Part shown: piece after piece, positions 8,403 to 49,820 of the stretch
How positions within the stretch are numbered: the first letter of the stretch is position 1
Layout: the number at the start of each line of letters is the position of its first letter
NCBI GenBank assembly: GCA_963666485.2
Contig: CAXXUO010000001.1
Location: 1,350,654 to 1,414,653 of the forward strand
DNA from: Syntrophorhabdaceae bacterium
GTDB taxonomy: Bacteria; Desulfobacterota; Syntrophorhabdia; Syntrophorhabdales; Syntrophorhabdaceae
Reading direction: 5' to 3'
DNA length: 64,000 nucleotides
Translations under genes and position numbers: made by a program
Notes under the pieces: model-generated
The model's input: only the letters and a program-made list of their open reading frames with translations
Told to the model about the DNA's origin: nothing
Databases searched by the model: none

Positions 8403-9818
8403 ATGAAGAGAAATGACGAGGTACAGCGGGCCGATTTTATTGATGAAGCAAAAATATTCCGGACGCTGGAAAAGGCAAAGAACGCTTCGGTTGCCGAGGT
8501 GCTCGACATCATAGAAAAAGGACGTGAGGCAAAGGGCCTTGACCCCTATGAGACCGCGGTGCTCCTGCACGCCGCGGACGGAGATGTCGAGCATGCCCTC
8601 TTTAAGGCGTCCCGTGAGGTCAAGGAAAAGATATACGGGCAGCGCCTTGTTCTCTTTGCGCCGCTCTATATCAGCAATTACTGCATCAACAATTGTACAT
8701 ATTGCGGGTACAGGCGGCACAACGCAATACCGAGGGAACGCCTTACGATGGACGAGATCGAGCGCGAGGTCATCGCCCTCGAGGCCATGGGGCACAAGCG
8801 GATCGCCCTGGAAGTCGGTGAGGACCCGAAGAATTGCCCGATCGACTATGTCCTCGAGGCCATGAAAAAGATCTATTCCGTCAAAGAATCGACGGGGAGC
8901 ATCCGGCGCATTAACGTCAACATCGCCGCGACGACGGTCGAGGATTATCGCAAGCTCAAAGAGGCGGGGATAGGCACGTACATCCTTTTCCAGGAGACCT
9001 ACCACCGCGAGACATATAAAAAGAGCCACCCCGCAGGCCCGAAAAAGGATTATGACTGGCACACGACGGCAATGGACCGTGCGATGCAGGCGGGCATCGA
9101 CGATGTCGGTTTAGGGGTCCTTTTCGGCCTTTTCGACTACAAATACGAGGTCCTCGGACTCCTCTACCATTCGCTCCACCTCGAGGAGCGCTTCGGGGTC
9201 GGGTGCCACACCATCTCTGTCCCGCGCATGAGGCCGGCCGAAGGGATCAATTTCGACACATTCCCATACCTGGTGAACGATCACGATTTCAAGAGGATGG
9301 TATCCATCATACGGCTTGCAGTTCCCTACACCGGTATGATACTGTCGACACGGGAACCTGCCGGATACCGGGACGAGGTCATAGCGCTCGGCATTTCGCA
9401 GATCAGCGCGGGTTCCTGCACGGGTGTCGGCGGCTACCACAAGGACATCGAAAAGCCGGACAAGAAAACGTACGGGCAGTTCCAGGTGGAAGACAACCGC
9501 ACGACCGACGAAATGCTCCTGAGTGTTTGCAAGTCGGGTTACCTTCCCAGTTTTTGCACGGCATGCTACCGGCAGGGACGGACCGGCGACAGGTTCATGG
9601 CCCTCGCAAAGACAGGCGAGATCCAGAATATCTGCCAGCCGAACGCGATACTGACCTTTAAGGAATTTGTGGTGGACTACGCATCGCCCGAGACCAAAGC
9701 GGCAGGTGAAGAGGTGATACGCATGCATCTCGACAAGATAGCGAACCCGAAGATGCGCAAGGAGATAGAAAAACGGCTCGCGAAGATCGAGGCCGGGGAG
9801 AGGGACCTCTATTTTTGA
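8403..9818 (+). CDS. hydG: [FeFe]-hydrogenase maturation radical SAM protein
   Basis: APLYISNYCINNCTYCGY, FQETYH, and C-terminal SFCTACY...CQPNA auxiliary cluster motif. Confidence 0.96.
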   Translation: MKRNDEVQRADFIDEAKIFRTLEKAKNASVAEVLDIIEKGREAKGLDPYETAVLLHAADGDVEHALFKASREVKEKIYGQRLVLFAPLYISNYCINNCTYCGYRRHNAIPRERLTMDEIEREVIALEAMGHKRIALEVGEDPKNCPIDYVLEAMKKIYSVKESTGSIRRINVNIAATTVEDYRKLKEAGIGTYILFQETYHRETYKKSHPAGPKKDYDWHTTAMDRAMQAGIDDVGLGVLFGLFDYKYEVLGLLYHSLHLEERFGVGCHTISVPRMRPAEGINFDTFPYLVNDHDFKRMVSIIRLAVPYTGMILSTREPAGYRDEVIALGISQISAGSCTGVGGYHKDIEKPDKKTYGQFQVEDNRTTDEMLLSVCKSGYLPSFCTACYRQGRTGDRFMALAKTGEIQNICQPNAILTFKEFVVDYASPETKAAGEEVIRMHLDKIANPKMRKEIEKRLAKIEAGERDLYF

Positions 9819-10829: not shown

Positions 10830-11311
10830 CAGTCCCGCCCGGGCCTCACGGCTTTGATCGTCCGTTTTTCCCGTATCTTTGTCAGTGTGTCACTGAATTC
10901 CTCGTTTTTCGGCTGCATGGTAACGGCCGTCTGCGCCAGGCTTTCCGCTTCGTCGAGGTTGGTGTCCTCCGAGTAATAAAGCCACGCGAGGTTATTATAA
11001 GCGTTCGGGTCCTGCGTCTTGTCTATCACCTCGCGGTAGGCTTTTTCGGCCTTATCGGTCATTCCTCTCTGGAAATACACGTTGCCCAGGTAAAGGTACG
11101 CGATGGGCATCTCCCTAGATGCTATCCTGTATTCCCTCTCCGCGCCATCAAAATCGTGCAGATTTTCATAGGCAACGCCGAGGTTTATATGTTCCTGTGG
11201 TGTGAGGAGGCCATTTCCGGTTGGGTAGGGAAGCCCGCAGCCGGCGACCAGGGCCGTGAAAAATATCAGGAGGGCACAATACGCAAAGCCCGGTATCCGG
11301 TTCTTCTTCAT
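10829..11311 (-). CDS. TPR-repeat lipoprotein
   Basis: Lipobox-like LVAGC and TPR motifs (HINLGVAY, AYLYLGNVY, AYNNLAWLY). Start moved to the ATG at 11311. Confidence 0.8.
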   Translation of the reverse strand: MKKNRIPGFAYCALLIFFTALVAGCGLPYPTGNGLLTPQEHINLGVAYENLHDFDGAEREYRIASREMPIAYLYLGNVYFQRGMTDKAEKAYREVIDKTQDPNAYNNLAWLYYSEDTNLDEAESLAQTAVTMQPKNEEFSDTLTKIREKRTIKAVRPGRD

Positions 11312-11349
11312 ATTTTCTCCAGGTCTGAGTTCGGGATAATCTCCTTTAA

Positions 11350-12819
<1,470 letters not shown>

Positions 12820-36291: not shown

Positions 36292-36484
36292 TCACAATTC
36301 CCCATCACCATCCACGCACCACCCCCCGTTTTCCCCGGCTTGGCCCGGGGTTCGCTCTCTTTTCTATTCTAATCCCACTTACCGCACATCCTTCACGCTC
36401 CGTCATCCCCGCGAAAGCCGAAAAACCCCAACCACCGTCATCCAAAAAATCCCAACCGCCATTATCCGAAAAACCTATCCGCTA

Positions 36485-36630
36485 GTCATCCAACCCCACC
36501 CGCCGCCATCCAACCCCACCCGCCGTCATCCAACCCCACCCGCCGTCATCCAACCCCACCCGCCGTCATCCAACCCCATCCGCCGTCATCCAACCCCATC
36601 CGCCGTCATCCAACCCCATCCGCCGTCATC
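36485..36630 (+). repeat. 20-bp tandem repeat (gtcatccaacccca[c/t]ccgcc) x7, ending in a CGTC REP (36624-36651)
   Basis: Seven contiguous units with no spacers, continuing into cgtcatcccggcgaaagccgggatccag. Confidence 0.9.
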
Positions 36631-36711
36631 CCGGCGAAAGCCGGGATCCAGGGTCTTTGTCTTTTCTTTTAATCCCGGAATATCAATTCATTTTACGAAT
36701 CTAAACCCTAT

Positions 36712-36740
36712 TTGACATTACATACCGTAATCAATAAACT
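36712..36740 (+). promoter_or_regulatory. sigma70 promoter of selC
   Basis: TTGACA-17 nt-TAAACT, ending 8 nt before the tRNA. Confidence 0.75.
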
Positions 36741-36748
36741 ATAGCAAC

Positions 36749-36843
36749 GGAAGTGGAGGGGTCCTGGTGGGCCTCCTGGTCTTCAAAACCAGTGTGCCGG
36801 TGACGAGCTGGCGGGTGGGTTCGATTCCCATGCACTTCCGCCA
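36749..36843 (+). tRNA. selC: tRNA-Sec (anticodon UCA)
   Basis: 95 nt. Acceptor GGAAGTG/CACTTCC, discriminator G plus CCA, anticodon arm CTGGT-CTTCAAA-ACCAG, long variable arm gccggtgacgagctggc, and T-arm GGTTCGATTCC. Confidence 0.95.
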
Positions 36844-36867
36844 TTTCAGTGATATCAAGGGTTTACA

Positions 36868-36950
36868 GCATTCTGACGTTGAAGACCAGAAGGCCCACCA
36901 GAACCCATCCCTGTCCATTTTTGATCAAATTGTGCCTAGATTGTGCCTGA
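36868..36950 (-). repeat. junction unit 1: inverted degenerate selC 5' half plus TTGTGCCT direct repeats
   Basis: Minus strand reads GGACAGGGATGGGTTCTGGTGGGCCTTCTGGTCTTCAACGTCAG. Tail aattgtgcctagattgtgcctga. Confidence 0.8.
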
Positions 36951-37035
36951 ACGGCTAATAATCTCTTCAAAAGGCTCGTCATTGGTAGAATGGTCATATA
37001 AACAAATTCACATAAAATGCCATATTGAATGGCGA

Positions 37036-37230
37036 ATGAAAAAATATGTTTCCCCGATTTTCTTAACATGCATCCTTGTCCTGATCTCACTTTGTCCTGG
37101 CTATCCCCAAACTGCAGAGGAAATGATTAATAAACCTGTCCTAAAGCCTAAAAAGCCAGGCGATCAAGCACATGTATACGATAGACAACACCAGATCGCC
37201 ACAGATTCACTTGACTATCCACTTTTCTAG
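37036..37230 (+). CDS. small secreted hypothetical protein (possibly truncated)
   Basis: MKKYVSPIFLTCILVLISLCPGYPQ signal-like N-terminus. Confidence 0.45.
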   Translation: MKKYVSPIFLTCILVLISLCPGYPQTAEEMINKPVLKPKKPGDQAHVYDRQHQIATDSLDYPLF

Positions 37231-37437
37231 TGATACGAAATAGCAAAACGTGATGTGCGCCTACCCGAAGAGATAGCCGACGGGGGAACGTTTTCCATCG
37301 AAGCTTGTCAAATGTACAATAAGAGGAAAGATGAAGGAGTCCCGATGCAGGGGTGACCGCAACACTTGTTTCCGGCGCAACGAGAGGGAAACAGGTTAAG
37401 ATTTGAGAGACGTATAGACTATTTTGGAGGTGGAGAA

Positions 37438-37842
37438 ATGAAGAGTACCGTATTTGCACTGTGTGGTCTGGTTTTTCTGATTCTGCTGTCGGGCATCAGC
37501 TGGGCTGATTGCGAAAGCGATTGTGACGGCCCTTTTCAAACATGCGTAAAGATGTGCAGGCAAACGACCAAGGAAGACAGCAAAGAGGCGGCGGCCTGCA
37601 TGGATAATTGTTTTCGCGGGGTCAGCGGCTGCCAGAAGAGGTGCAAGCAAAAAAATAGCGGGAATCTGGAAGATACGAAAAATGACCGCCTGCTGATCGC
37701 GGCAAATAATTCGTATACTGGCAAAAGCGTCGTTCAGGGCGCCAATTGCATTGAGCAGGGCCTGACATGTGTGTTGAATGGAACCCCTTGCTGCGCTCCC
37801 TATACATGCAAGGGAAAATTCCCCAACACGACCTGTCAATAA
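37438..37842 (+). CDS. secreted Cys-rich protein with CX3C helical-hairpin domain and C-terminal knottin-like motif
   Basis: RBS ggaggtggaga, signal peptide ending SWA, 8 Cys in CX3C pairs, then C-X6-C-X6-CC-X4-C-X8-C. Confidence 0.75.
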   Translation: MKSTVFALCGLVFLILLSGISWADCESDCDGPFQTCVKMCRQTTKEDSKEAAACMDNCFRGVSGCQKRCKQKNSGNLEDTKNDRLLIAANNSYTGKSVVQGANCIEQGLTCVLNGTPCCAPYTCKGKFPNTTCQ

Positions 37843-37905
37843 ACGGCGGGGGCATTGGTCTATCAAGCGTAAGGAAAATTCTGGCCTGAACCTGGAGGAT
37901 TGCAC

Positions 37906-38745
37906 ATGCACATGACACGATTGATCGGTATTGTCGCGCTGATCTGCCTCGCGACGACGCTTGGACTGGCCTGGGCCCAGACCGTCCCGGAAAATGCGCG
38001 CCGCTATATGGACCGGGGCCAGGCGGCGGTGGAGATGGCGAAGACGAATGTCGACCTCGAGGACGCGCTAAAGGAATTTCAGAAGGCAGCACAGTCTGCG
38101 CCTTCCTGGGCCGAGCCGTACTATCACATGGGAGTGGTGCAGAATAGACTGGGCCGGCTGGACGATGCGTTGACGAGCCTCAAGCGCTGCCTGCAGGTGG
38201 CCCCCGGGGGCAAAAATGCACAGGCCGCACAGCAGCTCATCAATAAGATCGAATATGTAAAGGAGAAGGAAACAGGGATCAGGAGGGTCTACGAATTGAT
38301 GGCGGAGACGACCAATCGTGTTCAATGGGTCAAGATCAGCCAGAAGGGCGCCGATGGCCCGGACTGGGAGATCGAGCACAATGAGGATTTTGACGGGTAC
38401 AAGCCCCCCGAGAATCGCAAGCAGCCGGTCTTCATAATGAAGGATGGGGCACTGTATAAGAACGGCTATTCCGTTGAGCCTATGAATTACTACATAGCCC
38501 CTGATCCCACTTACGGGAAGCTCCCGGTAAAGGTCGACGGGAGGTTTTTTGAATATACCTATCCGGTTGCCTTGGTATACGCGCTCCAGCGCGGGGAGTA
38601 TAGTTACGGGAAAGGCGGGGAAATGTCGATCAAAGGCGAAATAATCTCCTTCGACCCGCCCCGCGTGAAGAGGGTCCAGAGATTGAAGCTTCCCGAAGGA
38701 AAGACGTCCGTAACCGAGTATGTCTACGAATTGCGAAAAAGATAG
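37906..38745 (+). CDS. secreted TPR-repeat protein
   Basis: Signal peptide ending AWA, with ALKEFQKAAQSAPSWAEPYYHMGVV and ALTSLKRCLQVAP TPR motifs. Confidence 0.78.
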   Translation: MHMTRLIGIVALICLATTLGLAWAQTVPENARRYMDRGQAAVEMAKTNVDLEDALKEFQKAAQSAPSWAEPYYHMGVVQNRLGRLDDALTSLKRCLQVAPGGKNAQAAQQLINKIEYVKEKETGIRRVYELMAETTNRVQWVKISQKGADGPDWEIEHNEDFDGYKPPENRKQPVFIMKDGALYKNGYSVEPMNYYIAPDPTYGKLPVKVDGRFFEYTYPVALVYALQRGEYSYGKGGEMSIKGEIISFDPPRVKRVQRLKLPEGKTSVTEYVYELRKR

Positions 38746-38774
38746 TCGTATAAATGGTGGGAACGCGGTTTGCC

Positions 38775-39614
38775 TTAATCACGATTGCGTCTAAGTTCGT
38801 ACAACACGACCCAGGTTATAAATATTCTGACAGGAAGTGCAATTCGGACGGGAAGATCGACCAGGCAGCCCAGGCTGAAGTCTGATCCCTCGCCCGGGAT
38901 CATCCCTATCGTCTCGTCGTTTTGCTGTATAATGTACGTGTCAGTGAAGAGGTGACAGAAGGGGGCGGATGTAAGATAATATTCGCCGTCATTACATTTG
39001 ACCGTATACGAACTGGACACCAGGCTTTCTTTCTCGGCTCTTGCCAGCTCGATGCCATCTTTTTCGAGAAGAAAAGGTTTGAGACCGATCATTCCGTCTT
39101 TACCCCGGATATCATACCGATTTCCATCCAGGTCAAAATTGCAGGCACGATGCCACCATCCGCCTATCCGGGCGATCTCCCGCTCTTCATTGAAGACAGT
39201 GCACTCACCTACGGACCAGCCGGAGTCGACTCTGAGCGCAGGATAACCGTTTGTCCTTTCCGCCGGGCAACCGGCCATGTTTTTTCCTTCGGATTCTGAT
39301 TTGTGCTTTTTATAATAGAAGTACCCCCTGGACAACTCCTCGCCAATAAATACTGCAGCGACAATAACAAGGGGGATGACTTTGGAATACCAGTTCTCGC
39401 CGAGGATGTCGCCCAACCACCGGCCGGTATTGGCACGATTAACCCAGAGGATGAGCAAGATAAAAACGCACGCGGGGAGGTAGATTTTGACTATGCGTTC
39501 AATTGCGAAGGGTCCCTTTTTTTCTATCCGCCAATAAGGCGTCGCCCGGGGAGTCTCGTCTTTCTTTCTCAGGAGACTCTTGATGTATTCCCAGAAATCA
39601 TTCATATCATTCAT
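38775..39614 (-). CDS. membrane-anchored hypothetical protein (two TM helices plus a scramblase/LURP-like beta domain)
   Basis: Start moved to the ATG at 39614 because the longer ORF runs through the selC repeat. Confidence 0.55.
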   Translation of the reverse strand: MNDMNDFWEYIKSLLRKKDETPRATPYWRIEKKGPFAIERIVKIYLPACVFILLILWVNRANTGRWLGDILGENWYSKVIPLVIVAAVFIGEELSRGYFYYKKHKSESEGKNMAGCPAERTNGYPALRVDSGWSVGECTVFNEEREIARIGGWWHRACNFDLDGNRYDIRGKDGMIGLKPFLLEKDGIELARAEKESLVSSSYTVKCNDGEYYLTSAPFCHLFTDTYIIQQNDETIGMIPGEGSDFSLGCLVDLPVRIALPVRIFITWVVLYELRRNRD

Positions 39615-39689
39615 ACTCGGGCCCCGGATGCTCCCGCAGAATATCATTAAAAAGGCGAACCTTGCAACGGCTACAGGGCATCGATCAGA

Positions 39690-39843
39690 GCCGGTGACGA
39701 GCTGGCGGGTGGGTTCGATTCCCATGCACTTCCGCCATTTCTTTTTTGCCAACGGTCCGCAACATCCTGATATTGAAGGCCAGAAGTTCCACCAGGACCC
39801 TTCCTGTCCATTTTTGATCGAATTGTGCCTGGATTGTACCTGA
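39690..39843 (+). repeat. junction unit 2: 48-bp exact selC 3' end, inverted 5' half and TTGTGCCT boxes
   Basis: 39690-39737 is identical to 36796-36843. 39763-39809 is an inverted 5' half. Tail aattgtgcctggattgtacctga. Confidence 0.9.
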
Positions 39844-39926
39844 GGTGAAAAAGGAATTGACCCGATTTTCTCCAACGCCTATGATTGTTGTACCAGAAGC
39901 AAACAAATCATTAAGGAGGTAAGCAG

Positions 39927-40169
39927 GTGAAAAGGATTCTGGTGAGTTTTGTGGTGGCAGTTTTCGTGGCAGCCGCACTCATTCTGTCAGGTGGAAGTGC
40001 TCTTTATGCTAAAAGCAAAGAAGCTGCCTGTTATGGAGACTGCTTCAAAGCGATGAAGAATTGCATGGGGAAGGCCGGTCAGTCGAAGGATAAGCAACAA
40101 GAATGCAGTACAAAAGAGGATAACTGTAAGCGCCGTTGCGATCAGACTGGAGGCGCGGCAAGCAAGTAG
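39927..40169 (+). CDS. small secreted Cys-rich protein (80 aa)
   Basis: RBS aaggaggt, signal peptide, and CX3CX6C...CX6CX3C. Confidence 0.72.
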   Translation: MKRILVSFVVAVFVAAALILSGGSALYAKSKEAACYGDCFKAMKNCMGKAGQSKDKQQECSTKEDNCKRRCDQTGGAASK

Positions 40170-40696
40170 AAACTGCATTCGTCAAAAACAGCGCTTACAA
40201 GTACGGGCGCACGGATTGTGCCTGGATTGTGCCTGAGTCTCTGCACGGGGCTAAACCCATTTGTTTTTGTCGTACAATACTTGGCGGGGCGGCGCTTCCT
40301 GAAAAAACGTATCGACCAAGAAAGCGTCTGCGTTTGACAAAGGGCTTGTCCAATCCACATTGATCCAGATTGATGAGGCGATTGAAAAGATTTGGTCTCG
40401 CACCAGCGACATCGTATCGAATAAAATAGCGCAACTATCATCGTGATCGTCATCGGTATTTCCGGGGACCTGCGGATGGCAGGGGAATTCGACGGAGAGT
40501 ATCAAAGAATGAATATGGAGAGATCTTAAGAATGTTCGAAGTATTGAAGTTGACAAGGTTATCCGTGGACAGGTATCATTACAACAATTCTTATTTATTT
40601 TTCGCAAATTATCGTAATTATCGGTAAAGAAACGGCTGCTTCTGGTTGACTACACGTCAGGCAGCGATTGTCGTTCAGGAAACCCGAAGGCGGATC

Positions 40697-41179
40697 ATGA
40701 ATACCGGAAGCCAAATGGATATTGTCCACGCGATACAATTGGCCTTGGCACCGGCCTTCCTCCTCGCAGGAATCGCCGGCCTTCTCGGCCTGATGGTAGG
40801 CCGCCTGGGACGCATTGCTGACCGCCACCGCCGGCTCGCTGAATCTCCGGATATCGCAAATATGGCCGCGGAGTGGATAGAGCGTGAAATTCACGGATTG
40901 GCGCGCCGTGGGTATTGTGTAAATGCGGCGATTATTTCATTCACCGTATCGGCGTTGCTGGTATGCGTGGTTATTGCCATGTTGTTCCTGGAGGTGTTGG
41001 TGGACCTGCCTCTCAAATGGCTGGTAGGCATCATATTTTTTTCGGCTATGATGGCGCTGATCACCGGGCTGGTCTTCTTTCTGCGGGAGGTCCAGATGGT
41101 TAGTAGAATAGCACTCCGGGACTTTAGGTCATCGGGCGCGAAAGAGGGACAGCAGGAACGTTCGTTAAAAAGTAAATAA
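40697..41179 (+). CDS. DUF2721 family membrane protein
   Basis: IQLALAPAFLLAGIAGLL...RLGRIADR.R and FLREV motifs. Confidence 0.8.
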   Translation: MNTGSQMDIVHAIQLALAPAFLLAGIAGLLGLMVGRLGRIADRHRRLAESPDIANMAAEWIEREIHGLARRGYCVNAAIISFTVSALLVCVVIAMLFLEVLVDLPLKWLVGIIFFSAMMALITGLVFFLREVQMVSRIALRDFRSSGAKEGQQERSLKSK

Positions 41180-41245
41180 CTCAATTCCGAGTTTCCTTCC
41201 AAGCTATTGCCTTTGCCGCAACTTTTCCATCGTCACGTCGACATC

Positions 41246-41376
41246 GTTCGATTCCCATGCACTTCCGCCATTTATTTATCGCCAACGGTCTACGGCATCC
41301 TGATATTGCAGACCAGGAGGCCCACCAGGACCCCTCCTTGTACAGTTTGATCAAATTGTACAAGGATTGTGCATAG
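41246..41376 (+). repeat. junction unit 3: 25-bp selC 3' end, inverted 5' half (28-bp exact match) and degenerate boxes
   Basis: 41246-41270 matches the T-arm/acceptor end. 41310-41337 is the exact reverse complement of 36755-36782. Confidence 0.88.
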
Positions 41377-41664
41377 CGAAATCCCTGTTACGCGGTCGAC
41401 CCGACCGGGCCCTTCGGAGGCGTGGTCGGAACCTCGAGTAGCCTGAAGTCGCTATTGCCGAATCTCAGTCGATACGTAGCAGCACTTGCCTTGGTCGCTA
41501 TCTTCTGGACGAATTCCAGCCCCAAAATATCTCGATAAAATGTGAGGCTTGCCGAAAAAGCCGATCATCGCAAGCCCCACCAGAACCCCTTCACTGTCCA
41601 TTCCTAATTCAATTGTTAATTTTTGAAGAACGTCCCCGGATGCTCCACTGGGGGTAGCGTGATG

Positions 41665-41817
41665 TTATTCATCCCATAACAGGTAATGATCTTCATCATC
41701 CCAGCAGCATCCCCAACAGCCCTGGGCCGTGCAAAAACAACTGCCTTGGCAGGCGTTAGCGATACCAGCTGAGAATAATCCCACGAACAATACAAGAGCG
41801 AGCAGAAGTTTTTTCAT
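41665..41817 (-). CDS. 50-aa secreted Cys-rich peptide, absent from the ORF track
   Basis: RBS ggaggtg. MKKLLLALVLFVGLFSAGIANA-CQGSCFCTAQGCWGCCWDDEDHYLLWDE*. Confidence 0.7.
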   Translation of the reverse strand: MKKLLLALVLFVGLFSAGIANACQGSCFCTAQGCWGCCWDDEDHYLLWDE

Positions 41818-41951
41818 TGTCACCTCCGTAGATTAATTATCTCAAATATATCATTCACTATGTATCGTTCATTATTGTCATTTTGCATAGACAAAAGTGG
41901 ATAATGAGCTGTGGCGATATTTCCCCCAAAGGATATCAATAGACAACCCTG

Positions 41952-42011
41952 CAAAACCAGTGTGCCGGTGACGAGCTGGCGGGTGGGTTCGATTCCCATG
42001 CACTTCCGCCA
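41952..42011 (+). repeat. junction unit 4: 60-bp exact selC 3' half starting in the anticodon loop
   Basis: Identical to 36784-36843. Confidence 0.92.
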
Positions 42012-42265
42012 TTTCTTTGTGGGAGAGGGTTTGCACCGGATGGTTGTGTATCAGGTTTAACCGACCAGATGTTCTAATCCAATCAATTTTCGACCATATT
42101 TAGTGTTTTGGGGCTAAATTGGCGCTATCAAGTTTCCCAAAGCGTTGCCAGTAGAGTTATAAAAGATTGCCAAAACATTCCTAATACAATTGACAAGACA
42201 ATAACCTGAGAATAGAATTTCAGAAAATATTATGCATGGCAAGCGACCGTAAAGGAGAGAGATAA

Positions 42266-42328
42266 ATGTCTGTGCCCCATTTTCAATCTTTATTTAAGCC
42301 ACTGCTTGACATAGCTGCCGATGAATAG
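42266..42328 (+). pseudogene. remnant resembling the N-terminus of Mrr-type restriction endonucleases
   Basis: RBS aaggag. MSVPHFQSLFKPLLDIAADE* resembles the Mrr_N start (M.IPDFQ..M.PLL...ADG). Confidence 0.45.
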
Positions 42329-42383
42329 AATTCGAATTAAATCTCCAAGTATTTAAAAATGCCAGACAATCCAAGGGGGCTTT

Positions 42384-42783
42384 ATGTCAAACTATGGTGT
42401 CAGTGGCAAGGCAATATTGACGGGTTTTCTTTATACGGTTGCAATGTTCTTCCTCCTCGGCGTCCTCATGACAATGGTCGTACTAAAATGGTCGGAAATA
42501 GAACATGCATATATCTATTGGATTATTATAATTTTAATTCTGGTAAGCGCGGGATATATAACCGGGGTTATAGCTAAAAGGTCTGAAATAATTAATGCAG
42601 CCATTATGGGAATGTTATTGGCTTTCGGTTGGCTTGCAATTACTAATGCAAGGAACCAAATTGACTCTCGATATAACTATCCTTTTTAAACTGTTATCGG
42701 CAATTTTCTTTACTGTTGTGGGTGGCATCATACGAAAACATACAAAAAAATATGACCTACCCGGTGGTGATTTATCAAAATGA
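42384..42783 (+). CDS. small membrane protein, probably frameshifted near 42655
   Basis: Three TM helices in 42384-42689. A further hydrophobic helix (ITILFKLLSAIFFTVVGGII) follows in the adjacent frame. Confidence 0.45.
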
Positions 42784-42959
42784 GGTTACGGAATGGTTGA
42801 CCTGGATATCAAATCGGAAAAACATTTTTGATAACGCAGGTTCATATCATTTTCCCTTACTGGTGAGGTTTTATTTTCTGCTAATGTACTCCTTGAATAC
42901 ATGATACAAAACGGGTATCTTACGACTGTATGTCAAATTTTGTTTAACAGGAGGAAATT

Positions 42960-43406
42960 GTGAAAAAAGTTCTAATTGTTGTTTTCGCTTTAATGATATT
43001 AATGGCATTGGTCCCTATGCAGACGATGGCATTCGATCCGGCTGCCTTAGAGAAACTCAAAACTACGAATAAATGTGCAGGCTGTCAACTTGACGGCGCA
43101 AATCTAATGGGAGTAAATCTTTCTAATGCAAACCTGATGGGGGCGAACCTCGCTAGAGCAATCTTAATTAAGACAAATTTATCTAAAGCGTTTCTTTCAA
43201 CGGCTGACCTTACCGGAGCAGTATTGATGGATGCCAACCTCGAGGAAGCACTGATGGCCGGTACTAACCTGACCGGGGCATTCCTGAGCGGGGCAAACCT
43301 GAAAGGGGCCAAGGTCAACCTCATTCCGACCGACGCAAATTTTATTGGCGCAACATGGACAGACGGGCGAAAGTGCGGCCACGGGTCAATCGGCGCGTGC
43401 AAATAG
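42960..43406 (+). CDS. secreted pentapeptide repeat protein
   Basis: RBS aggagg, signal peptide, KCAGCQL then A(N/D)LxG repeats, and GATWTDG..C. Confidence 0.88.
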   Translation: MKKVLIVVFALMILMALVPMQTMAFDPAALEKLKTTNKCAGCQLDGANLMGVNLSNANLMGANLARAILIKTNLSKAFLSTADLTGAVLMDANLEEALMAGTNLTGAFLSGANLKGAKVNLIPTDANFIGATWTDGRKCGHGSIGACK

Positions 43407-43476
43407 TAAAGTGAGAACGCCCTCAATAATGTTGTAGGCTAAGCGCAATAGCTGTCTGTAGTAAAGGGAGAAGACA

Positions 43477-43908
43477 ATGATTACCGCTAAAAAGGTTGTT
43501 ATCGGCATCGCTCTATTTACATTTCTATTCACAGCGGGAGTATGTTTCGCAGATTCGACTATACCCAATCTGGTGGGTGCATGGACTGTAACGACCGAGG
43601 GCGGCGTCCTTCTAAAAGGCGGCTCTTACTCGTGGAAGACGCACCACAGCGGCGAGTTCAGCACCCTGACCGCCGAAGCAGTTGTGACCAAGCAGCAAGG
43701 GAGAGTCTTTCATGGGGTCTTTACGTCATTGAGGGCTACCGAGAAGTTCATCGGCGTCATCGGTCTTGACAATAAGAGCTTTTATTATGCCGATGAAGAT
43801 GGGTTCGTGGATGGCAAGATAATAGGTAAAAACAGAATAGAAGTTGTTTACCGTCATGTATCCACGTCAGATACCGTAGTAGGAGTGGGTACGTGGATAC
43901 GGAAGTAG
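43477..43908 (+). CDS. secreted beta-rich hypothetical protein (paralog of 46393-46827)
   Basis: Signal peptide, IPNLVGAW, VTKQQGRVFHGVF and YYADEDG. Confidence 0.75.
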   Translation: MITAKKVVIGIALFTFLFTAGVCFADSTIPNLVGAWTVTTEGGVLLKGGSYSWKTHHSGEFSTLTAEAVVTKQQGRVFHGVFTSLRATEKFIGVIGLDNKSFYYADEDGFVDGKIIGKNRIEVVYRHVSTSDTVVGVGTWIRK

Positions 43909-44113
43909 AAAATTAACAATGAATTCCGGGAACCCGGGAAAAATACAGTTTTTATTTCGATTCGGTGTGGATACTTATAAGGAAATGGTTCGATTAAATA
44001 CGCAGAACCACTAAAAAATATATACGACAAAGCAATTGAGCATTTAACTTCGAGGCCAGATCGTAACGAAGCGGAAATGAAGAATAGTACACGGTAGTAT
44101 CTTGAGGAGGCCC

Positions 44114-44404
44114 ATGAAAAAAACATTCGTCGCATTGTTCGCAGCGCTCATTGCCCTTACGTTTATCTGTCCTGCGCTGTCCGCTGATAATCCGGTTGAT
44201 AAATCTAAACAGGCACCCGCCAAGATTGATAAACCGAAGACAGATGTTAATAAGGAAAAAGCCCAATCGAAGGAAGTTAAAGCTACGACCGGGAACCCTG
44301 CATCCAAGAAGACAGATAAGGCATTAGGGTCCGGCGGGGGGATCGTTCCGCCGGGGCCAATACCACCGGGACCTGTAGGTAAGAGCACAAATAGCGGGAA
44401 GTAG
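44114..44404 (+). CDS. small secreted Lys/Pro-rich protein
   Basis: RBS gaggagg, signal peptide, low-complexity mature region. Confidence 0.6.
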   Translation: MKKTFVALFAALIALTFICPALSADNPVDKSKQAPAKIDKPKTDVNKEKAQSKEVKATTGNPASKKTDKALGSGGGIVPPGPIPPGPVGKSTNSGK

Positions 44405-44623
44405 AGCCTTCCCTTCAGGTATTACGGAGAAGTAGCGGACGGTACGCTGGAGCCCTCCGGGACAAAAGGTTGCGTTGTAGTGCCGAGAGTGCTTGGCGAC
44501 ACGCTAGTCGCTTTTTTTGCTTCCTCGCCTGTCGTGACGAGCCGGAAGGGCTTCATTCCCCAAGGCGCGACCTTGACGGAAATGTAATTCGCTGCTAATG
44601 TTCCTGATGACGGAAACTATTAT

Positions 44624-45364
44624 ATGCTGAATGCATTTTTATGGGGTGTATTGGCGACGTCCTCTTTGATCCTCGGAGGATTGATTGCTTCCCGATTTTC
44701 TTTGAGTAAACGGACCATCGGGATAATAATGGCTTTTGGTGCCGGGACGTTGCTTTCGGCTGTTTCCTATGAATTGATCTTTGAAGCAGTCAAACTTGCC
44801 AGGGGGACAGGGTTTCCCGCATTTGGTCTTTTTGCCGGAGCTCTCACGTTTTATTTCAGCGAGCGGCTGATTGTAAAATTGGGCGCCAGGAATCACATGA
44901 AAATTGAGGCATCCAAAGAGTCCGGCCTGGTAATCCCCATGGTACTGGCGATCATTCTCGATGGTGTGCCCGAATCTATCGTTATCGGATTGGGTATATT
45001 TGAAGCCGGTACAGTAAGTCCGGCCATGCTGGTTGCCGTTTTTATTTCAAATTTGCCGGAGGCCATTGCCGGAACAACCGGTATGAAGGCGGGTGGCTGG
45101 AGCAAGGCGAAAATAGTTTTTCTCTGGGTTATCATTGCAGTTATATGCGCATTTGCAACTCTGTGCGGTTACTCCCTGTTCAGCGGTGTATCCGAGCAAT
45201 GGCTGTCATTTATCCAGGCTTTTGCGGGAGGCGCTATTCTGATTATGCTTGCTAACTCAATGATACCGGAATCGTATGAACATGGAGGAAAACTCACGGG
45301 TATTTTCACGGTGCTTGGATTTTTTGTTTCAGTGTCGATAGTAATAGTGGAAAACATCAGATAA
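44624..45364 (+). CDS. ZIP family metal transporter
   Basis: MAFGAGTLLSAVSYEL, LDGVPES, SNLPEA and AFAGGAILIMLANSMIPE. Confidence 0.88.
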   Translation: MLNAFLWGVLATSSLILGGLIASRFSLSKRTIGIIMAFGAGTLLSAVSYELIFEAVKLARGTGFPAFGLFAGALTFYFSERLIVKLGARNHMKIEASKESGLVIPMVLAIILDGVPESIVIGLGIFEAGTVSPAMLVAVFISNLPEAIAGTTGMKAGGWSKAKIVFLWVIIAVICAFATLCGYSLFSGVSEQWLSFIQAFAGGAILIMLANSMIPESYEHGGKLTGIFTVLGFFVSVSIVIVENIR

Positions 45365-45391
45365 AACGGTCAGGGTCTTCCGGGATTTGAT

Positions 45392-45790
45392 TCAATTCAC
45401 ATCATCAATGGTCGGCAGCTTGTCCACTCCTATCCATTTGGCGGCCTCCGATAACGTCCGAAAAACTTGCGTATCAAGCGGTAGATCTATGAGTTCCCCA
45501 AAGGTGCTGAGCATTCTGCTAATCCCATATTCCAGGTCAGCCGGTGCAACTATTGCCGTTTTCCCTCCAACCCTGGTATACGCATGCGTACGGACAAGAT
45601 CAGCAATGGCTCTCAGGTCGTCAGATGTCAGCTGCCCCACTGACCCTGTTGAGAGATCCCATACCACATCTTTCGTTATGTGGCCTGCATAGGCATCCAG
45701 CACGGCATTCAGCAACTCATCGGCTGTGACAACGCCGACGATTTTTCGCATCGTCACTTCTCCTGAAATGACGGTTTTTATTTCGGCCAT
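45392..45790 (-). CDS. hypothetical protein (STAS/SpoIIAA-like)
   Basis: VVWDLS, KTAIVAPADLEYGISRM and QVFRTLSEAAKWI. Confidence 0.65.
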   Translation of the reverse strand: MAEIKTVISGEVTMRKIVGVVTADELLNAVLDAYAGHITKDVVWDLSTGSVGQLTSDDLRAIADLVRTHAYTRVGGKTAIVAPADLEYGISRMLSTFGELIDLPLDTQVFRTLSEAAKWIGVDKLPTIDDVN

Positions 45791-46029
45791 CTTATTGGTC
45801 CTCTAATACATAGACAGTATCATGTATCCAGCAATAGGTACGACAAGGGTTCAGTAACTAATTACCACTAAAACAGTCATGTTTCAAGACGAAGAGGTTA
45901 CGAATCCGAAAAGACGGATAAGGTATTAGGGGTCGGCGGGGGGATGGTATCGCTACCGCCACCACCTATCCGCGGGGGTGGCGGTAAGAACACAAATACT
46001 GTGAAGTAACCCTCAATTGGTGACTGGAG

Positions 46030-46296
46030 TTAATCTTTCGTATTGTCGACAATTTTCTGGGCATCTTCATGTTGTTTCTTCGAGATACCCGAGACTGTTT
46101 CGGTAGGGCTCGATTGTTTTCCAACCGGTTTTGCAACATCTTTCCGTGGTTTAACATCCGGTTTCTTTGCAGGGGAAGAAGGTTCTTTTTTGTAGCTGTT
46201 CTTGTTCTGACCGGTTGATGTATCAGCGGCAAACACGGTGCCTGCAAAAAGAACCGATATGATAGAGGCAATGATCAACATTCTGACCTGTCTCAT
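46030..46296 (-). CDS. small secreted Lys-rich protein
   Basis: Signal peptide ending VFA. C-terminus SGISKKQHEDAQKIVDNTKD. Confidence 0.55.
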   Translation of the reverse strand: MRQVRMLIIASIISVLFAGTVFAADTSTGQNKNSYKKEPSSPAKKPDVKPRKDVAKPVGKQSSPTETVSGISKKQHEDAQKIVDNTKD

Positions 46297-46392
46297 TCTT
46301 TCCCCTCTCGAGATCATGTTTCACGTCTTAAGCTGATTCTATAAAACCATCGGATAGACGTTCTTTTAAAACAATGTGCAGCCGGGTTTTTC

Positions 46393-46827
46393 TTATTTCT
46401 TTCTGGACCACGTTCCCACGGATAAAACGGAATCAACCGGGGTTGCGTGCCTGTAAATACCCTGGATCGTGTCGTTGTCAAGGATCTTCGCATCCATGTA
46501 GCCGTCCTGGTCGACCAGGGATATACTCTTGTTGTCAAAACCGATCGCGGCGACGAAGTTCTCGGTCATTTTTGGCGAGGTGAAAGTTCCCCACAAGAGC
46601 CTGCCATCCTGCTTTGTGATCACTACTTCGCCGCCTGACGCATTGACCTGCTGCGCGTAGTGGGTGTATTTGCCCGGGGCATCGCCTTTTAACATAAGGA
46701 CGGCCTGAGATTTTACCGTCCACGTTCCCACCAAATTGGGAATGGCAGAGTCGGCATAGCAAATGCCCGCCGTGAAGAAGAACGTCAACAGGATGATAGC
46801 TGCAACAGATTTTCTTGCCGTGGTCAT
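46393..46827 (-). CDS. secreted beta-rich hypothetical protein (paralog of 43477-43908)
   Basis: RBS aaggaggag. MTTARKSV...GICYADSAIPNLVGTW, ITKQDGR and VDQDG. Confidence 0.75.
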   Translation of the reverse strand: MTTARKSVAAIILLTFFFTAGICYADSAIPNLVGTWTVKSQAVLMLKGDAPGKYTHYAQQVNASGGEVVITKQDGRLLWGTFTSPKMTENFVAAIGFDNKSISLVDQDGYMDAKILDNDTIQGIYRHATPVDSVLSVGTWSRKK

Positions 46828-46974
46828 TGTCTCCTCCTTGAGAGATGAATCGATCCCGGAACGGGTAGCACGTTGCGCTGTTTTCGGCAAGGGACCGGGA
46901 AAGCCCTTCACCCTTTTATCCTTATCATTAAAAGGTGAACCTTGCAACAGGTATGAGACGTCAATCGATTTGCC

Positions 46975-46999
46975 TCTTCAAAACCGGTGTGCCGGTAAC
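46975..46999 (+). repeat. junction unit 5: degenerate selC anticodon/variable-arm fragment
   Basis: tcttcaaaaccggtgtgccggtaac matches 36780-36804 at 23 of 25 positions. Confidence 0.7.
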
Positions 47000-48767: not shown

Positions 48768-49820
48768 CTAATTCTTTTTATAACAGCCGTAGAATATTCC
48801 GTTCTCTATCTTTGGCTCTACGTTGCTTCCTCCACCCGAACCCCATGCCGTGCAGCCAGCCTGGAATTCATATTTGTTTGCGCCGCCGCACCGGGGGGAT
48901 TGTGATCCGTTCGATGTCGCACAGCAGAAATAACCTTTTGCATCGCACCGCATATATGATCCCATAACACCGGCACAGCTTGGCTGTCCCTGATATGTAT
49001 AACCCGGGAAATTCTTAGGCCCCGGGCAACCGGTCGACTGCTGCTGCGGTGGGGCTCCCGGCTGGGCGCAGGTCCCATTGCTGCAGTACTTCGATGTGCA
49101 TTCCGACGAGGCATGGCAGGGCCTCCCGATCGCCTGGTTGCCTGCCGAGCATGTTCCGCGGAGCCCGCCCGCGACCTGGCAATAACCACTGCTGCACTGC
49201 TGGTGCGTCGTGCAGAAATCGTTCGGCCTACCGGTCCCGTCCTGGGCGACGCATCCCGCCCCCTGCCGGTTGTCGCAGCGCTGGGAGACACACTCATTGT
49301 GTGATGAGCATGCGGTTCCCAGTGGTTTGCTGCTCGCAGCCGAGCATCTGCCAGCGATTTTGCCGGCAGCGACCGAGCACATCTGGCTGCGGCACTGTTG
49401 GTGCGTCGAACAAAAATCGTTCGCGTTACCAGTGCCGTCCTGCGGAACGCAGCCTGAACCCGGCCGGTTGTCACAACGCCGGGAGACACACTCGTTATGG
49501 GACGAGCAGGCGGCTCCGAGCGGTTTACTGCTCCCGCCGCACGTGCCTGTGATCTTGCCCGGGGTGATGCTGCACAACTGGCTGCTGCATTGCTGATGGG
49601 TCGTGCAGAATTCATTCGGCTTACCGGTTCCGTCCTGCGGAACGCAGCCTGCCTGTGCCCGGTTGTCGCAGCGCCCGGAAGTACACTCGTAATGCCCGGC
49701 ACATTTCGCACCCAACGGCTTCCCGGCAAATGACGGCGTTGCACACAGCATGATGCCGGCCAGCAACAAAAGAGACAGTATGAACGCTTTGCGATAATAA
49801 CGCTTCTTTGTAACTGCCAT
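48768..49820 (-). CDS. secreted Cys-rich repeat protein
   Basis: Signal peptide. Three ~66-aa repeats KPLG..C..H.EC.S.RCDNR...GCV.QDGTG..N.FC.THQQC.S..C, then a Cys-rich C-terminal domain. Confidence 0.8.
   Translation of the reverse strand: MAVTKKRYYRKAFILSLLLLAGIMLCATPSFAGKPLGAKCAGHYECTSGRCDNRAQAGCVPQDGTGKPNEFCTTHQQCSSQLCSITPGKITGTCGGSSKPLGAACSSHNECVSRRCDNRPGSGCVPQDGTGNANDFCSTHQQCRSQMCSVAAGKIAGRCSAASSKPLGTACSSHNECVSQRCDNRQGAGCVAQDGTGRPNDFCTTHQQCSSGYCQVAGGLRGTCSAGNQAIGRPCHASSECTSKYCSNGTCAQPGAPPQQQSTGCPGPKNFPGYTYQGQPSCAGVMGSYMRCDAKGYFCCATSNGSQSPRCGGANKYEFQAGCTAWGSGGGSNVEPKIENGIFYGCYKKN

Follow-up and report, generated by a model that had tools for sequence, protein, structure and literature searches.

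The selC locus of a Syntrophorhabdaceae bacterium raises the question of whether a tRNA gene can anchor a working, integron-like system for gene capture, or whether the row of small segments that follows it is a genome scar. The DNA analysed here (the window) is a stretch of 64,000 nt that reaches the contig end (G000:C1:1350654-1414653; G numbers denote the genomes compared, with G000 being the window genome), and positions are given relative to its first nucleotide. It contains an intact selC, the gene for tRNA-Sec, behind which partial copies of this tRNA delimit four segments; an earlier note on this DNA had interpreted these as cassettes, captured in integron-like fashion by a recombinase acting in trans. 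Our analysis leads to another answer: we read the array as a familiar type of genome scar, not as functional machinery for capturing genes, and assign a probability of about 0.68 to the explanation that it is a frozen accretion array of selC-targeting islands that has been worn down, rather than an integron-like capture system.

The only tRNA gene in the window (ARAGORN, Rfam) is selC, which lies on the + strand at 36749-36843, has the anticodon TCA, matches Rfam RF01852 with 73.7 bits (E 1.2e-13) and is preceded by a sigma-70-like promoter at 36712-36740; Rfam found no other RNA family between 30 and 55 kb. The terminal 25 nt of tRNA-Sec occur four times exactly on the + strand, with ends at 36843, 39737, 41270 and 42011, i.e. 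in selC itself and in copies at 39713-39737, 41246-41270 and 41987-42011, and no such match was obtained in any of 100 shuffles of the window. The pieces containing these copies differ in extent: c2 (39690-39737, +) is exact over 48 nt (tRNA positions 48-95) and lacks the anticodon loop; c3 (41246-41270, +) is exact over 25 nt (positions 71-95), a length typical for scars of the T-loop class; and c4 (41948-42011, +) covers positions ~32-95, being exact over the 60 nt at 41952-42011, with CTGCAAA as anticodon loop vs CTTCAAA in selC. A further piece, c5 (46975-46999, +), matches positions 32-56 at 23/25 nt and has its 3' part (positions 57-95) deleted; at this match level, too, none is expected from shuffles. 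These copies and the c5 fragment lie exactly where the earlier note had placed them, and the segment sizes that it gave (2.9, 1.5, 0.7 and 5.0 kb) are equally correct. Its description of the repeat as the tRNA 3' end was accurate for the copies themselves and fell short in that the real repeat extends ~110 nt further after selC, c2 and c3. Concerning their starts, c4 and c5 begin in the anticodon loop, c3 begins in the T-loop and c2 at position 48. A sublocation scheme for scars in tRNA genes, reportedly set out by Williams in 2002, has them start either in the anticodon loop or in the T-loop; the unusual start of c2 would be explained by a deletion of ~20 nt relative to c5.

The extension of the repeat is a homologous arm of ~110 nt that adjoins selC, c2 and c3 with pairwise identities of 79-85% and follows one layout: a spacer of ~24 nt comes first, then the tRNA 5' half copied in inverted orientation, a short linker with a T-run at its end, and a tandem site with an 11-nt period. 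Arm a1 (36844-36960, +), which is of P' type and opens segment 1, carries inverted tRNA positions ~7-38 at 36868-36919 and the tandem site ATTGTGCCTAGATTGTGCCT at 36929-36948. Arm a2 (39738-39860, +) is 82-85% identical to a1, with its inverted half at 39767-39804 and its site at 39822-39841. In arm a3 (41271-41390, +) the inverted half (41288-41337) is 86% complementary to tRNA positions 7-56, with 28 nt exact, and is joined by a palindrome at 41335-41366; the tandem site is degenerate here, and a pattern search finds none in this arm. The ATTGTGCY motif in tandem at an 11-nt period was detected at 36929-36948, 39822-39841 and 40215-40234, the last being a second, solo copy of the site within segment 2 (+), against an expectation of 0.02 for the window from shuffles. 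A solo partial arm consisting of part of the inverted half and the linker lies inside segment 3 (41572-41616, +), and the arm after c4 is of a different type, being 71% like the selC-proximal arm of G018. At the opposite ends of the segments, a P-arm-like stretch with 76% identity is common to the regions upstream of c2 (39650-39686) and c5 (46930-46966): the former lies in a P-arm remnant of segment 1 (39650-39689, +), the latter in the P arm next to c5 (46930-46974, +). The ~20 nt that are missing upstream of c2 relative to c5 would hold the anticodon-loop core. We also considered the arm as a coding sequence, which was ruled out as the reading frames differ between a1 and a2. The tRNA pieces are exact (48/48, 25/25, 60/60) whilst the arms are only 79-85% alike, a pattern that fits host-derived scars standing beside element-derived arms.

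Comparison with relatives points to the elements from which these arms stem. The selC query matched in 33/40 relatives, many of them with several partial copies, and in G003, G012, G014, G024, G036 and G060 a tyrosine integrase gene lies convergent to selC and directly against it. One type of 330 aa, the stop codon of which overlaps the tRNA end, is found in G003 and G012; the other, of 364-378 aa, we named INT_A (G014, G024, G036 twice, G060). INT_A shows PF00589 and SAM-like N-domain matches with ~70 residues ahead of them, and by analogy to arm-binding integrases these N-terminal residues probably bind the arms. When the DNA following selC was aligned, the P' arms of G014 and G024 proved to have the ~24-nt spacer and 11-nt-period ATTGTRMY repeats in common with a1-a3, and in both genomes these repeats encode the INT_A C-terminus: thus, a1-a3 are P' arms of INT_A-type elements of which the integrase body is gone, and the tandem ATTGTGCY sites are likely to be what INT_A binds. 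A simple island in G024, which comprises selC, INT_A and, at a distance of 7.5 kb, a piece that begins in the anticodon loop, ties INT_A to the scar class of ~63 nt. Amongst 27 scar starts examined, 14 are in the anticodon loop, and others belong to scars of 24-31 nt that start in the T-loop; from such starts, together with the sublocation scheme mentioned above, strand exchange by INT_A would be placed in the anticodon loop.

The relatives also show how variable the locus is. Five congeners (G003, G006, G012, G014 and G018) have retained synteny in the left flank, which contains a radical-SAM gene and a response regulator with HD domain, and the DNA after selC is different in each of these genomes. 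Multi-unit arrays are present in G002, G018, G035 and G062, with at least 7 tRNA-Sec pieces over 40 kb in G002:C18, and fragments of INT_A are embedded in the arrays at selC in G002 (four places), G003, G018 and G062. In G035, where selC is beyond the contig end, an apparent INT_A-only element is followed by four integrase-less units.

Within the window genome, which is 99% complete, five PF00589 matches were found. The two strongest (E 1e-50 and 3e-42) we take to be XerC/D, and the other three integrases are located beside tRNA-Arg(tct), beside tRNA-Arg(cct) and at ~2 kb from tRNA-Cys/Gly; not one of the five lies at selC or closely resembles INT_A (19-21% identity in tblastn), and this genome thus has no INT_A. 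The junctions of the array are damaged as well: the anticodon-loop region is missing from c2 and c3, one loop base differs in c4, and c5 has lost its 3' part. If INT_A does exchange strands in the anticodon loop, then no internal junction is intact. Neither Pfam (run on 21 open reading frames (ORFs) from the window, of which 13 lie within 36844-46999) nor PHROGs (17 ORFs) identified an integrase, replication or transfer domain in the array. Taken together, the other arm type after c4 and the T-loop-sized c3 point to more than one recombinase family and deletions that fused remnants.

From what was observed, namely the repeats, the homology of the arms to the P' arms of INT_A, the lack of INT_A in this genome, the damage to the cores and the differences between relatives, we infer the following order of events. 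Integrative elements targeting selC would have entered serially by site-specific recombination, with each newcomer pushing older elements outward, and the far end of each would have come to be marked by a copy of the tRNA 3' part that derives from the host. Two or more recombinase classes would have been involved: INT_A, as a heterobivalent tyrosine integrase family with an identity block from the anticodon loop, would account for a1-a3, c4 and c5, and a second, T-loop class would fit c3. Deletions would later have removed the integrase genes and parts of the attachment sites, such that no unit of the array could now be excised individually, and the genome encodes no matching recombinase; the remaining genes, mostly for secreted or membrane proteins, would be passengers.

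Judged against these results, the interpretation of the earlier note is supported in part. Serial site-specific capture at selC is supported; three segments have one kind of end, content varies among relatives next to a conserved left flank, and the lack of integrase, replication or transfer genes in the array was confirmed by Pfam, PHROGs and, for integrases, tblastn. A working integron-like capture by a recombinase in trans is not supported: what the segments have in common at their ends is the P' arm of an ordinary integrase family found next to selC and intact in relatives, the genome has no INT_A, the cores are damaged and segment 3 has no ORF of at least 70 aa. The note had also suggested that a tyrosine recombinase with matching ends should be sought in the genome, and none of the five PF00589 matches is of INT_A type or located at selC. 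Its proposal to compare selC loci among relatives gave differing content after a conserved left flank, and no right flank; the integrase remnants that it had named as evidence against its own view are present in the arrays of G002, G003, G018 and G062 and absent from the window.

A number of observations weigh against accretion followed by decay. The tRNA pieces carry no substitution, and tblastn of 36.8-49 kb with four selC-linked integrases of relatives gave only matches with E > 0.3: perfect tRNA pieces together with no integrase debris mean that the integrases vanished cleanly and quickly, or that the units never had one. Segment 1 retains both its P' arm and its P arm, and comparison with relatives did not reveal the right-hand chromosomal boundary of the array. 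Arms with an inverted half never directly adjoin INT_A in our sample; intact INT_A occurs only against arms without it (G014, G024, G036 twice, G060), and where inverted-half arms have an INT_A nearby at all, the distance is 0.85 kb (G042), 4.2 kb (G094) or, in one metagenome contig, 1.9 kb. Arm-type matches that extend past the tRNA complement are furthermore found in at least 16/96 genomes of the order, in an integrase-less design, and a spreading non-autonomous lineage would explain such recurrent integrase-less arms better than independent decay. In a rival reading, the units entered as integrase-less satellites, i.e. cis-mobilisable mini-islands made up of P' arm, cargo and P arm, which were moved in trans by the INT_A of a co-resident or incoming element. 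We regard this as possible, though unlikely. It is favoured by the integrase-less module of spacer, inverted 5' half and 20-mer in those genomes of the order, by the multi-unit arrays in four relatives, by the composition of the G035 array, by both arms of segment 1 and by the perfect scars free of integrase debris in the window. It is opposed by the absence of INT_A from the window genome, by the state of the junctions (c2 and c3 without core, c4 with its loop base changed, c5 truncated), by a segment 3 that carries no gene and by the INT_A fragments in the arrays of relatives; moreover, no gene near-identical to the TPR gene of segment 1 was found in 95 other genomes of the order, relatives reaching 33-56% identity, with the best value of 56% over part of the protein. 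Were the units satellites, the array would be a real, now idle record of gene capture of the kind that the earlier note had in mind, with present activity less likely than history.

Searches with the 20-mer (ATTGTGCTTGGATTGTGCTT) bear on the same point. It is exact in 19 stretches of a species-representative genome collection, 17 of which are titled as Syntrophorhabdales-type or 'delta proteobacterium' metagenome-assembled genomes (MAGs); the remaining two are a contig from a Scalindua MAG, which has a tandem run and lacks any tRNA piece, and the inside of a Francisellaceae gene. Metagenome contigs yielded 46 distinct exact occurrences, with the tRNA-Sec 3' end 70-104 nt upstream in 17 and an inverted-half signature in 19, whilst ~10/46 are an unrelated lake-water repeat. 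INT_A-like coding sequence followed in 1/46 (at +1.9 kb, with downstream DNA of up to 2.5 kb), which favours integrase-less units; however, a search for the exact 20-mer is biased against integrase-adjacent arms because sites there must also encode protein. A separate observation concerns the lake contigs L109, L116, L131, L144 and L146 from several freshwater metagenomes, which carry the 11-nt unit three times in tandem in near-identical sequence and without a tRNA-Sec piece; this is apparently an unrelated element.

Local events could also be invoked for the array, with arms and tRNA pieces multiplied in place by unequal crossing-over or replication slippage. Three units of one design within 4.6 kb would suit such a process, but the interiors of the segments are unrelated, the pieces differ in length (48, 25 and 60 nt), and the tRNA pieces are identical despite a divergence of 15-21% between the arms, whereas an old duplication would leave the reverse pattern; we therefore consider this very unlikely. 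Less probable still is an artefact in which the repeats of 25-60 nt made the assembler chain unrelated metagenome pieces. The stretch is present as contigs in four runs of one sample, in which public short-read unitigs end exactly at the repeats (36818-39719, 39715-41275, 41247-41993 and from 41989 onward), so that the order of the segments is without independent confirmation, and selC regions of other organisms pile up at the repeats to a depth of 100-400 vs ~7-18. Such breaks and foreign pile-ups would suit an artefact, but the repeats are shorter than a read, the unitig depths of segments 1-3 are alike within each of three runs (6.5-6.8, 7.1-8.0 and 17.2-18.0), and arrays of the same build exist in several independent genomes. 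Joints indicative of segment excision were not found among the contigs of three runs, the unitigs of which stop at the repeats, and a raw-read run from a different sample contributed 0 reads to the stretch.

The inverted tRNA half is the one feature of the array that could prove new: we found no description of an inverted tRNA 5' half in an att arm in search listings of the published literature, and, if functional, it would represent a novel attachment-site architecture. The inverted copy stops precisely in the anticodon loop, and a degenerate half-site (nTCAG) comes next. In genus g1 it comprises positions 7-38 with 0-7 mismatches (1 in a3, 0 in G002 at 12.6 kb and 0 in G003) and positions 1-6 are replaced; in other genera it extends to position 1 or 2, usually with the variant of the host tRNA. 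The G094 copy is identical to its own tRNA-Sec at 37/37 positions, including a D-arm variant absent from g1, the copies in G035, G062 and G036 are likewise of their own host type, and the G042 copy is g1-like and foreign, giving a host-type half in 4/5 non-g1 genomes with their own tRNA-Sec sequence for comparison. This match to the host may have arisen by co-divergence, by gene conversion with selC, or under selection that favours either a second core or a hairpin. An extended proposal, which we hold to be doubtful, would make the arm, instead of a passive binding region for the integrase, the hallmark of Syntrophorhabdales-wide integrase-less selC units that ride on INT_A integrases, the inverted half providing each unit with a second, opposite core; this would permit recombination with selC in either direction, or a flip of the tRNA 3' half between two 5' halves. 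The flipped state, a full selC preceded by the reverse-complement 20-mer, was found in 0/25 distinct selC loci and in 0/401 genomes of the phylum, the latter being a weak search (exact pattern, 15 genomes of the order, no positive control). A candidate in G003, in which the DNA after the 5' fragment seemed to be the reverse complement of spacer and tRNA 3' part, was dropped since local alignments did not exceed shuffles (z <= 1.9). Read-through RNA from selC into the arm is predicted to form a long hairpin ahead of a U-run (-87 kcal/mol, z -5.7), which follows trivially from the inverted repeat itself, and we draw no function from it.

Two further observations touch on the arm and on the rebuilding of selC. 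We found no gene that is always linked to the arm, although small ORFs of the GSU3473 family (NF045719, E 2e-18 and 2e-15) are encoded at G062:C15 (L071) 8514-8792 and G035:C10 (L024) 9063-9293: they start 36-63 nt after the 20-mer in several G062 units, and are found further downstream of it in G035 (+528 nt) and, in reverse orientation, in G002, whereas the window genome has no member of the family. They may be an element-borne small DNA-binding or directionality factor. In G003:C1 (L020), a copy of the selC promoter and tRNA positions 1-39 that ends in the anticodon loop (8926-9019) lies 2.3 kb upstream of the intact selC (region 11289-11448); the region upstream of the intact gene is 95% identical to that of the window selC vs 87.5% to that of the first G003 copy. 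This looks like a recombination event in which an element supplied the promoter and 5' half for a rebuilt tRNA.

Placed amongst known systems, worn-down accretion at selC has close counterparts. At the ssrA gene of Dehalococcoides, McMurdie et al. 2011 (PMC3146451) describe 15 islands without an integration module, suggested to be cis-mobilisable or fixed, and integrase-less units moved in trans are already published there as cis-mobilisable elements (CIMEs) and accretion. As here, a single-copy small-RNA gene is followed by many direct 3'-end repeats that bound small, strain-specific islands, with conserved sequence around the repeats; unlike here, the enzyme is a serine integrase and the repeat comprises 20 bp at the T-loop of the tmRNA, whereas the selC arrays involve the tyrosine integrases of relatives and tRNA-Sec scars of 25-63 nt, with no integration module left in the array or genome of the window. 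The ICESt1 family (Pavlovic et al. 2004, as cited in PMC3146451) similarly provides att-flanked elements without recombination genes stacked in tandem at one site. CIMEs, however, keep working attL and attR sites and a neighbouring supplier of integrase; in the window genome, the sequence reveals neither intact attL/attR at both ends of each unit nor a cognate integrase from a neighbouring element in the same cell. Prochlorococcus tycheposons (bioRxiv 10.1101/2020.12.28.424599) are tRNA-anchored islands in which newcomers push older elements inward and leave partial tRNAs and fragmented integrases; they differ in phylum and in the tRNAs used, and their excision was shown by PCR. With regard to tRNA-gene islands in general, the intact tRNA gene followed by partial 3' copies, the canonical scar starts and the repeated arm-type sites beside the core are all in place; the integrase gene at the tRNA-proximal junction is absent from the window and present in the six relatives with an integrase against selC. 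The likeness to integrons is outward only, in that short segments with genes are lined up and one site recurs between them: a resident IntI, attI and Pc are all absent, the gene upstream of selC being the response regulator with HD domain, the boundaries are direct tRNA-derived repeats rather than attC palindromes, the genes lie on both strands and one segment has none. More broadly, the finding identifies selC as the principal target of a clade-specific family of integrative elements in Syntrophorhabdales-like bacteria, and shows that such landing sites can gather rows of small, gene-poor, inert scars that resemble cassette arrays, which helps in judging 'integron-like' calls.

The cargo of the segments consists mainly of small ORFs, for which signal peptides were assigned by eye from the translations. 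Pfam matches in the array are limited to TPR, DUF2721 and pentapeptide repeats, with weak sub-threshold matches to ZIP and DUF3792, and NCBIfam and PHROGs returned only pentapeptide repeats. Segment 1 (cargo 36961-39649, genes on both strands) encodes a Cys-rich predicted-secreted ORF (37366-37842, +), a predicted-secreted TPR protein (37900-38745, +) and a membrane ORF (38775-39614, -); a listed ORF of 366 aa that reaches 39875 is an artefact, as it reads through c2 and a2. Segment 2 (cargo 39927-41179, +) contains an 80-aa Cys-rich predicted-secreted ORF (39927-40169, +) and a DUF2721 membrane protein (40646-41179, +), and segment 3 (41271-41951) is without an ORF of at least 70 aa. Segment 4 (cargo 42012-46929) carries a small membrane ORF (42384-42689), a predicted-secreted pentapeptide-repeat protein (42960-43406), two predicted-secreted paralogues (43477-43908, +; 46393-46947, -), a predicted-secreted ORF (44102-44404), a ZIP-like transporter (44624-45364), a 132-aa ORF (45392-45790, -) and a further predicted-secreted ORF (46030-46317, -). 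The 1.3 kb with the ZIP-like transporter and the 132-aa ORF (44534-45848) are 90% identical to DNA inside the selC array of G002, whereas other DNA common to the two genomes is 69-79% identical, which counts in favour of mobile DNA. The paralogues of segment 4 are 48% identical, lie in opposite orientation and belong to no known family; two further copies adjoin each other in G002:C18 at 52.5-54.5 kb. Beyond c5, a 350-aa predicted-secreted protein (48768-49820, -) has three Cys-rich repeats of ~60 aa and no family match. Its G002 homologue lies between two tRNA-Sec scars, and the island of the window therefore probably reaches past c5 to at least 49.8 kb.

Elsewhere in the window genome, contig C3 holds two more tRNA-Sec scars 30 kb apart (C3:194625-194655 and C3:224601-224638). 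The first, of tRNA positions 68-98, is directly followed by a 120-aa ORF with a sub-threshold match to the C-terminal part of PF00589 (E 8.5e-4), which shows decay and rearrangement of selC islands in this genome; the second, of positions 33-70, is accompanied by a P arm with a homologue in G002. The DNA separating the two scars encodes a serine recombinase and contains an HNH/ABC-3C CTD11 gene, a DUF2326 ATPase-like gene and an AbiC-like gene, which suggests that the region is a displaced piece of a selC island with defence-like cargo. Finally, ~10 head-to-tail copies of a C-rich 20-nt unit (AACCCCACCCGCCGTCATCC-like), the period of which is not a multiple of 3, occupy 36424-36651, between the response-regulator gene and the selC promoter.

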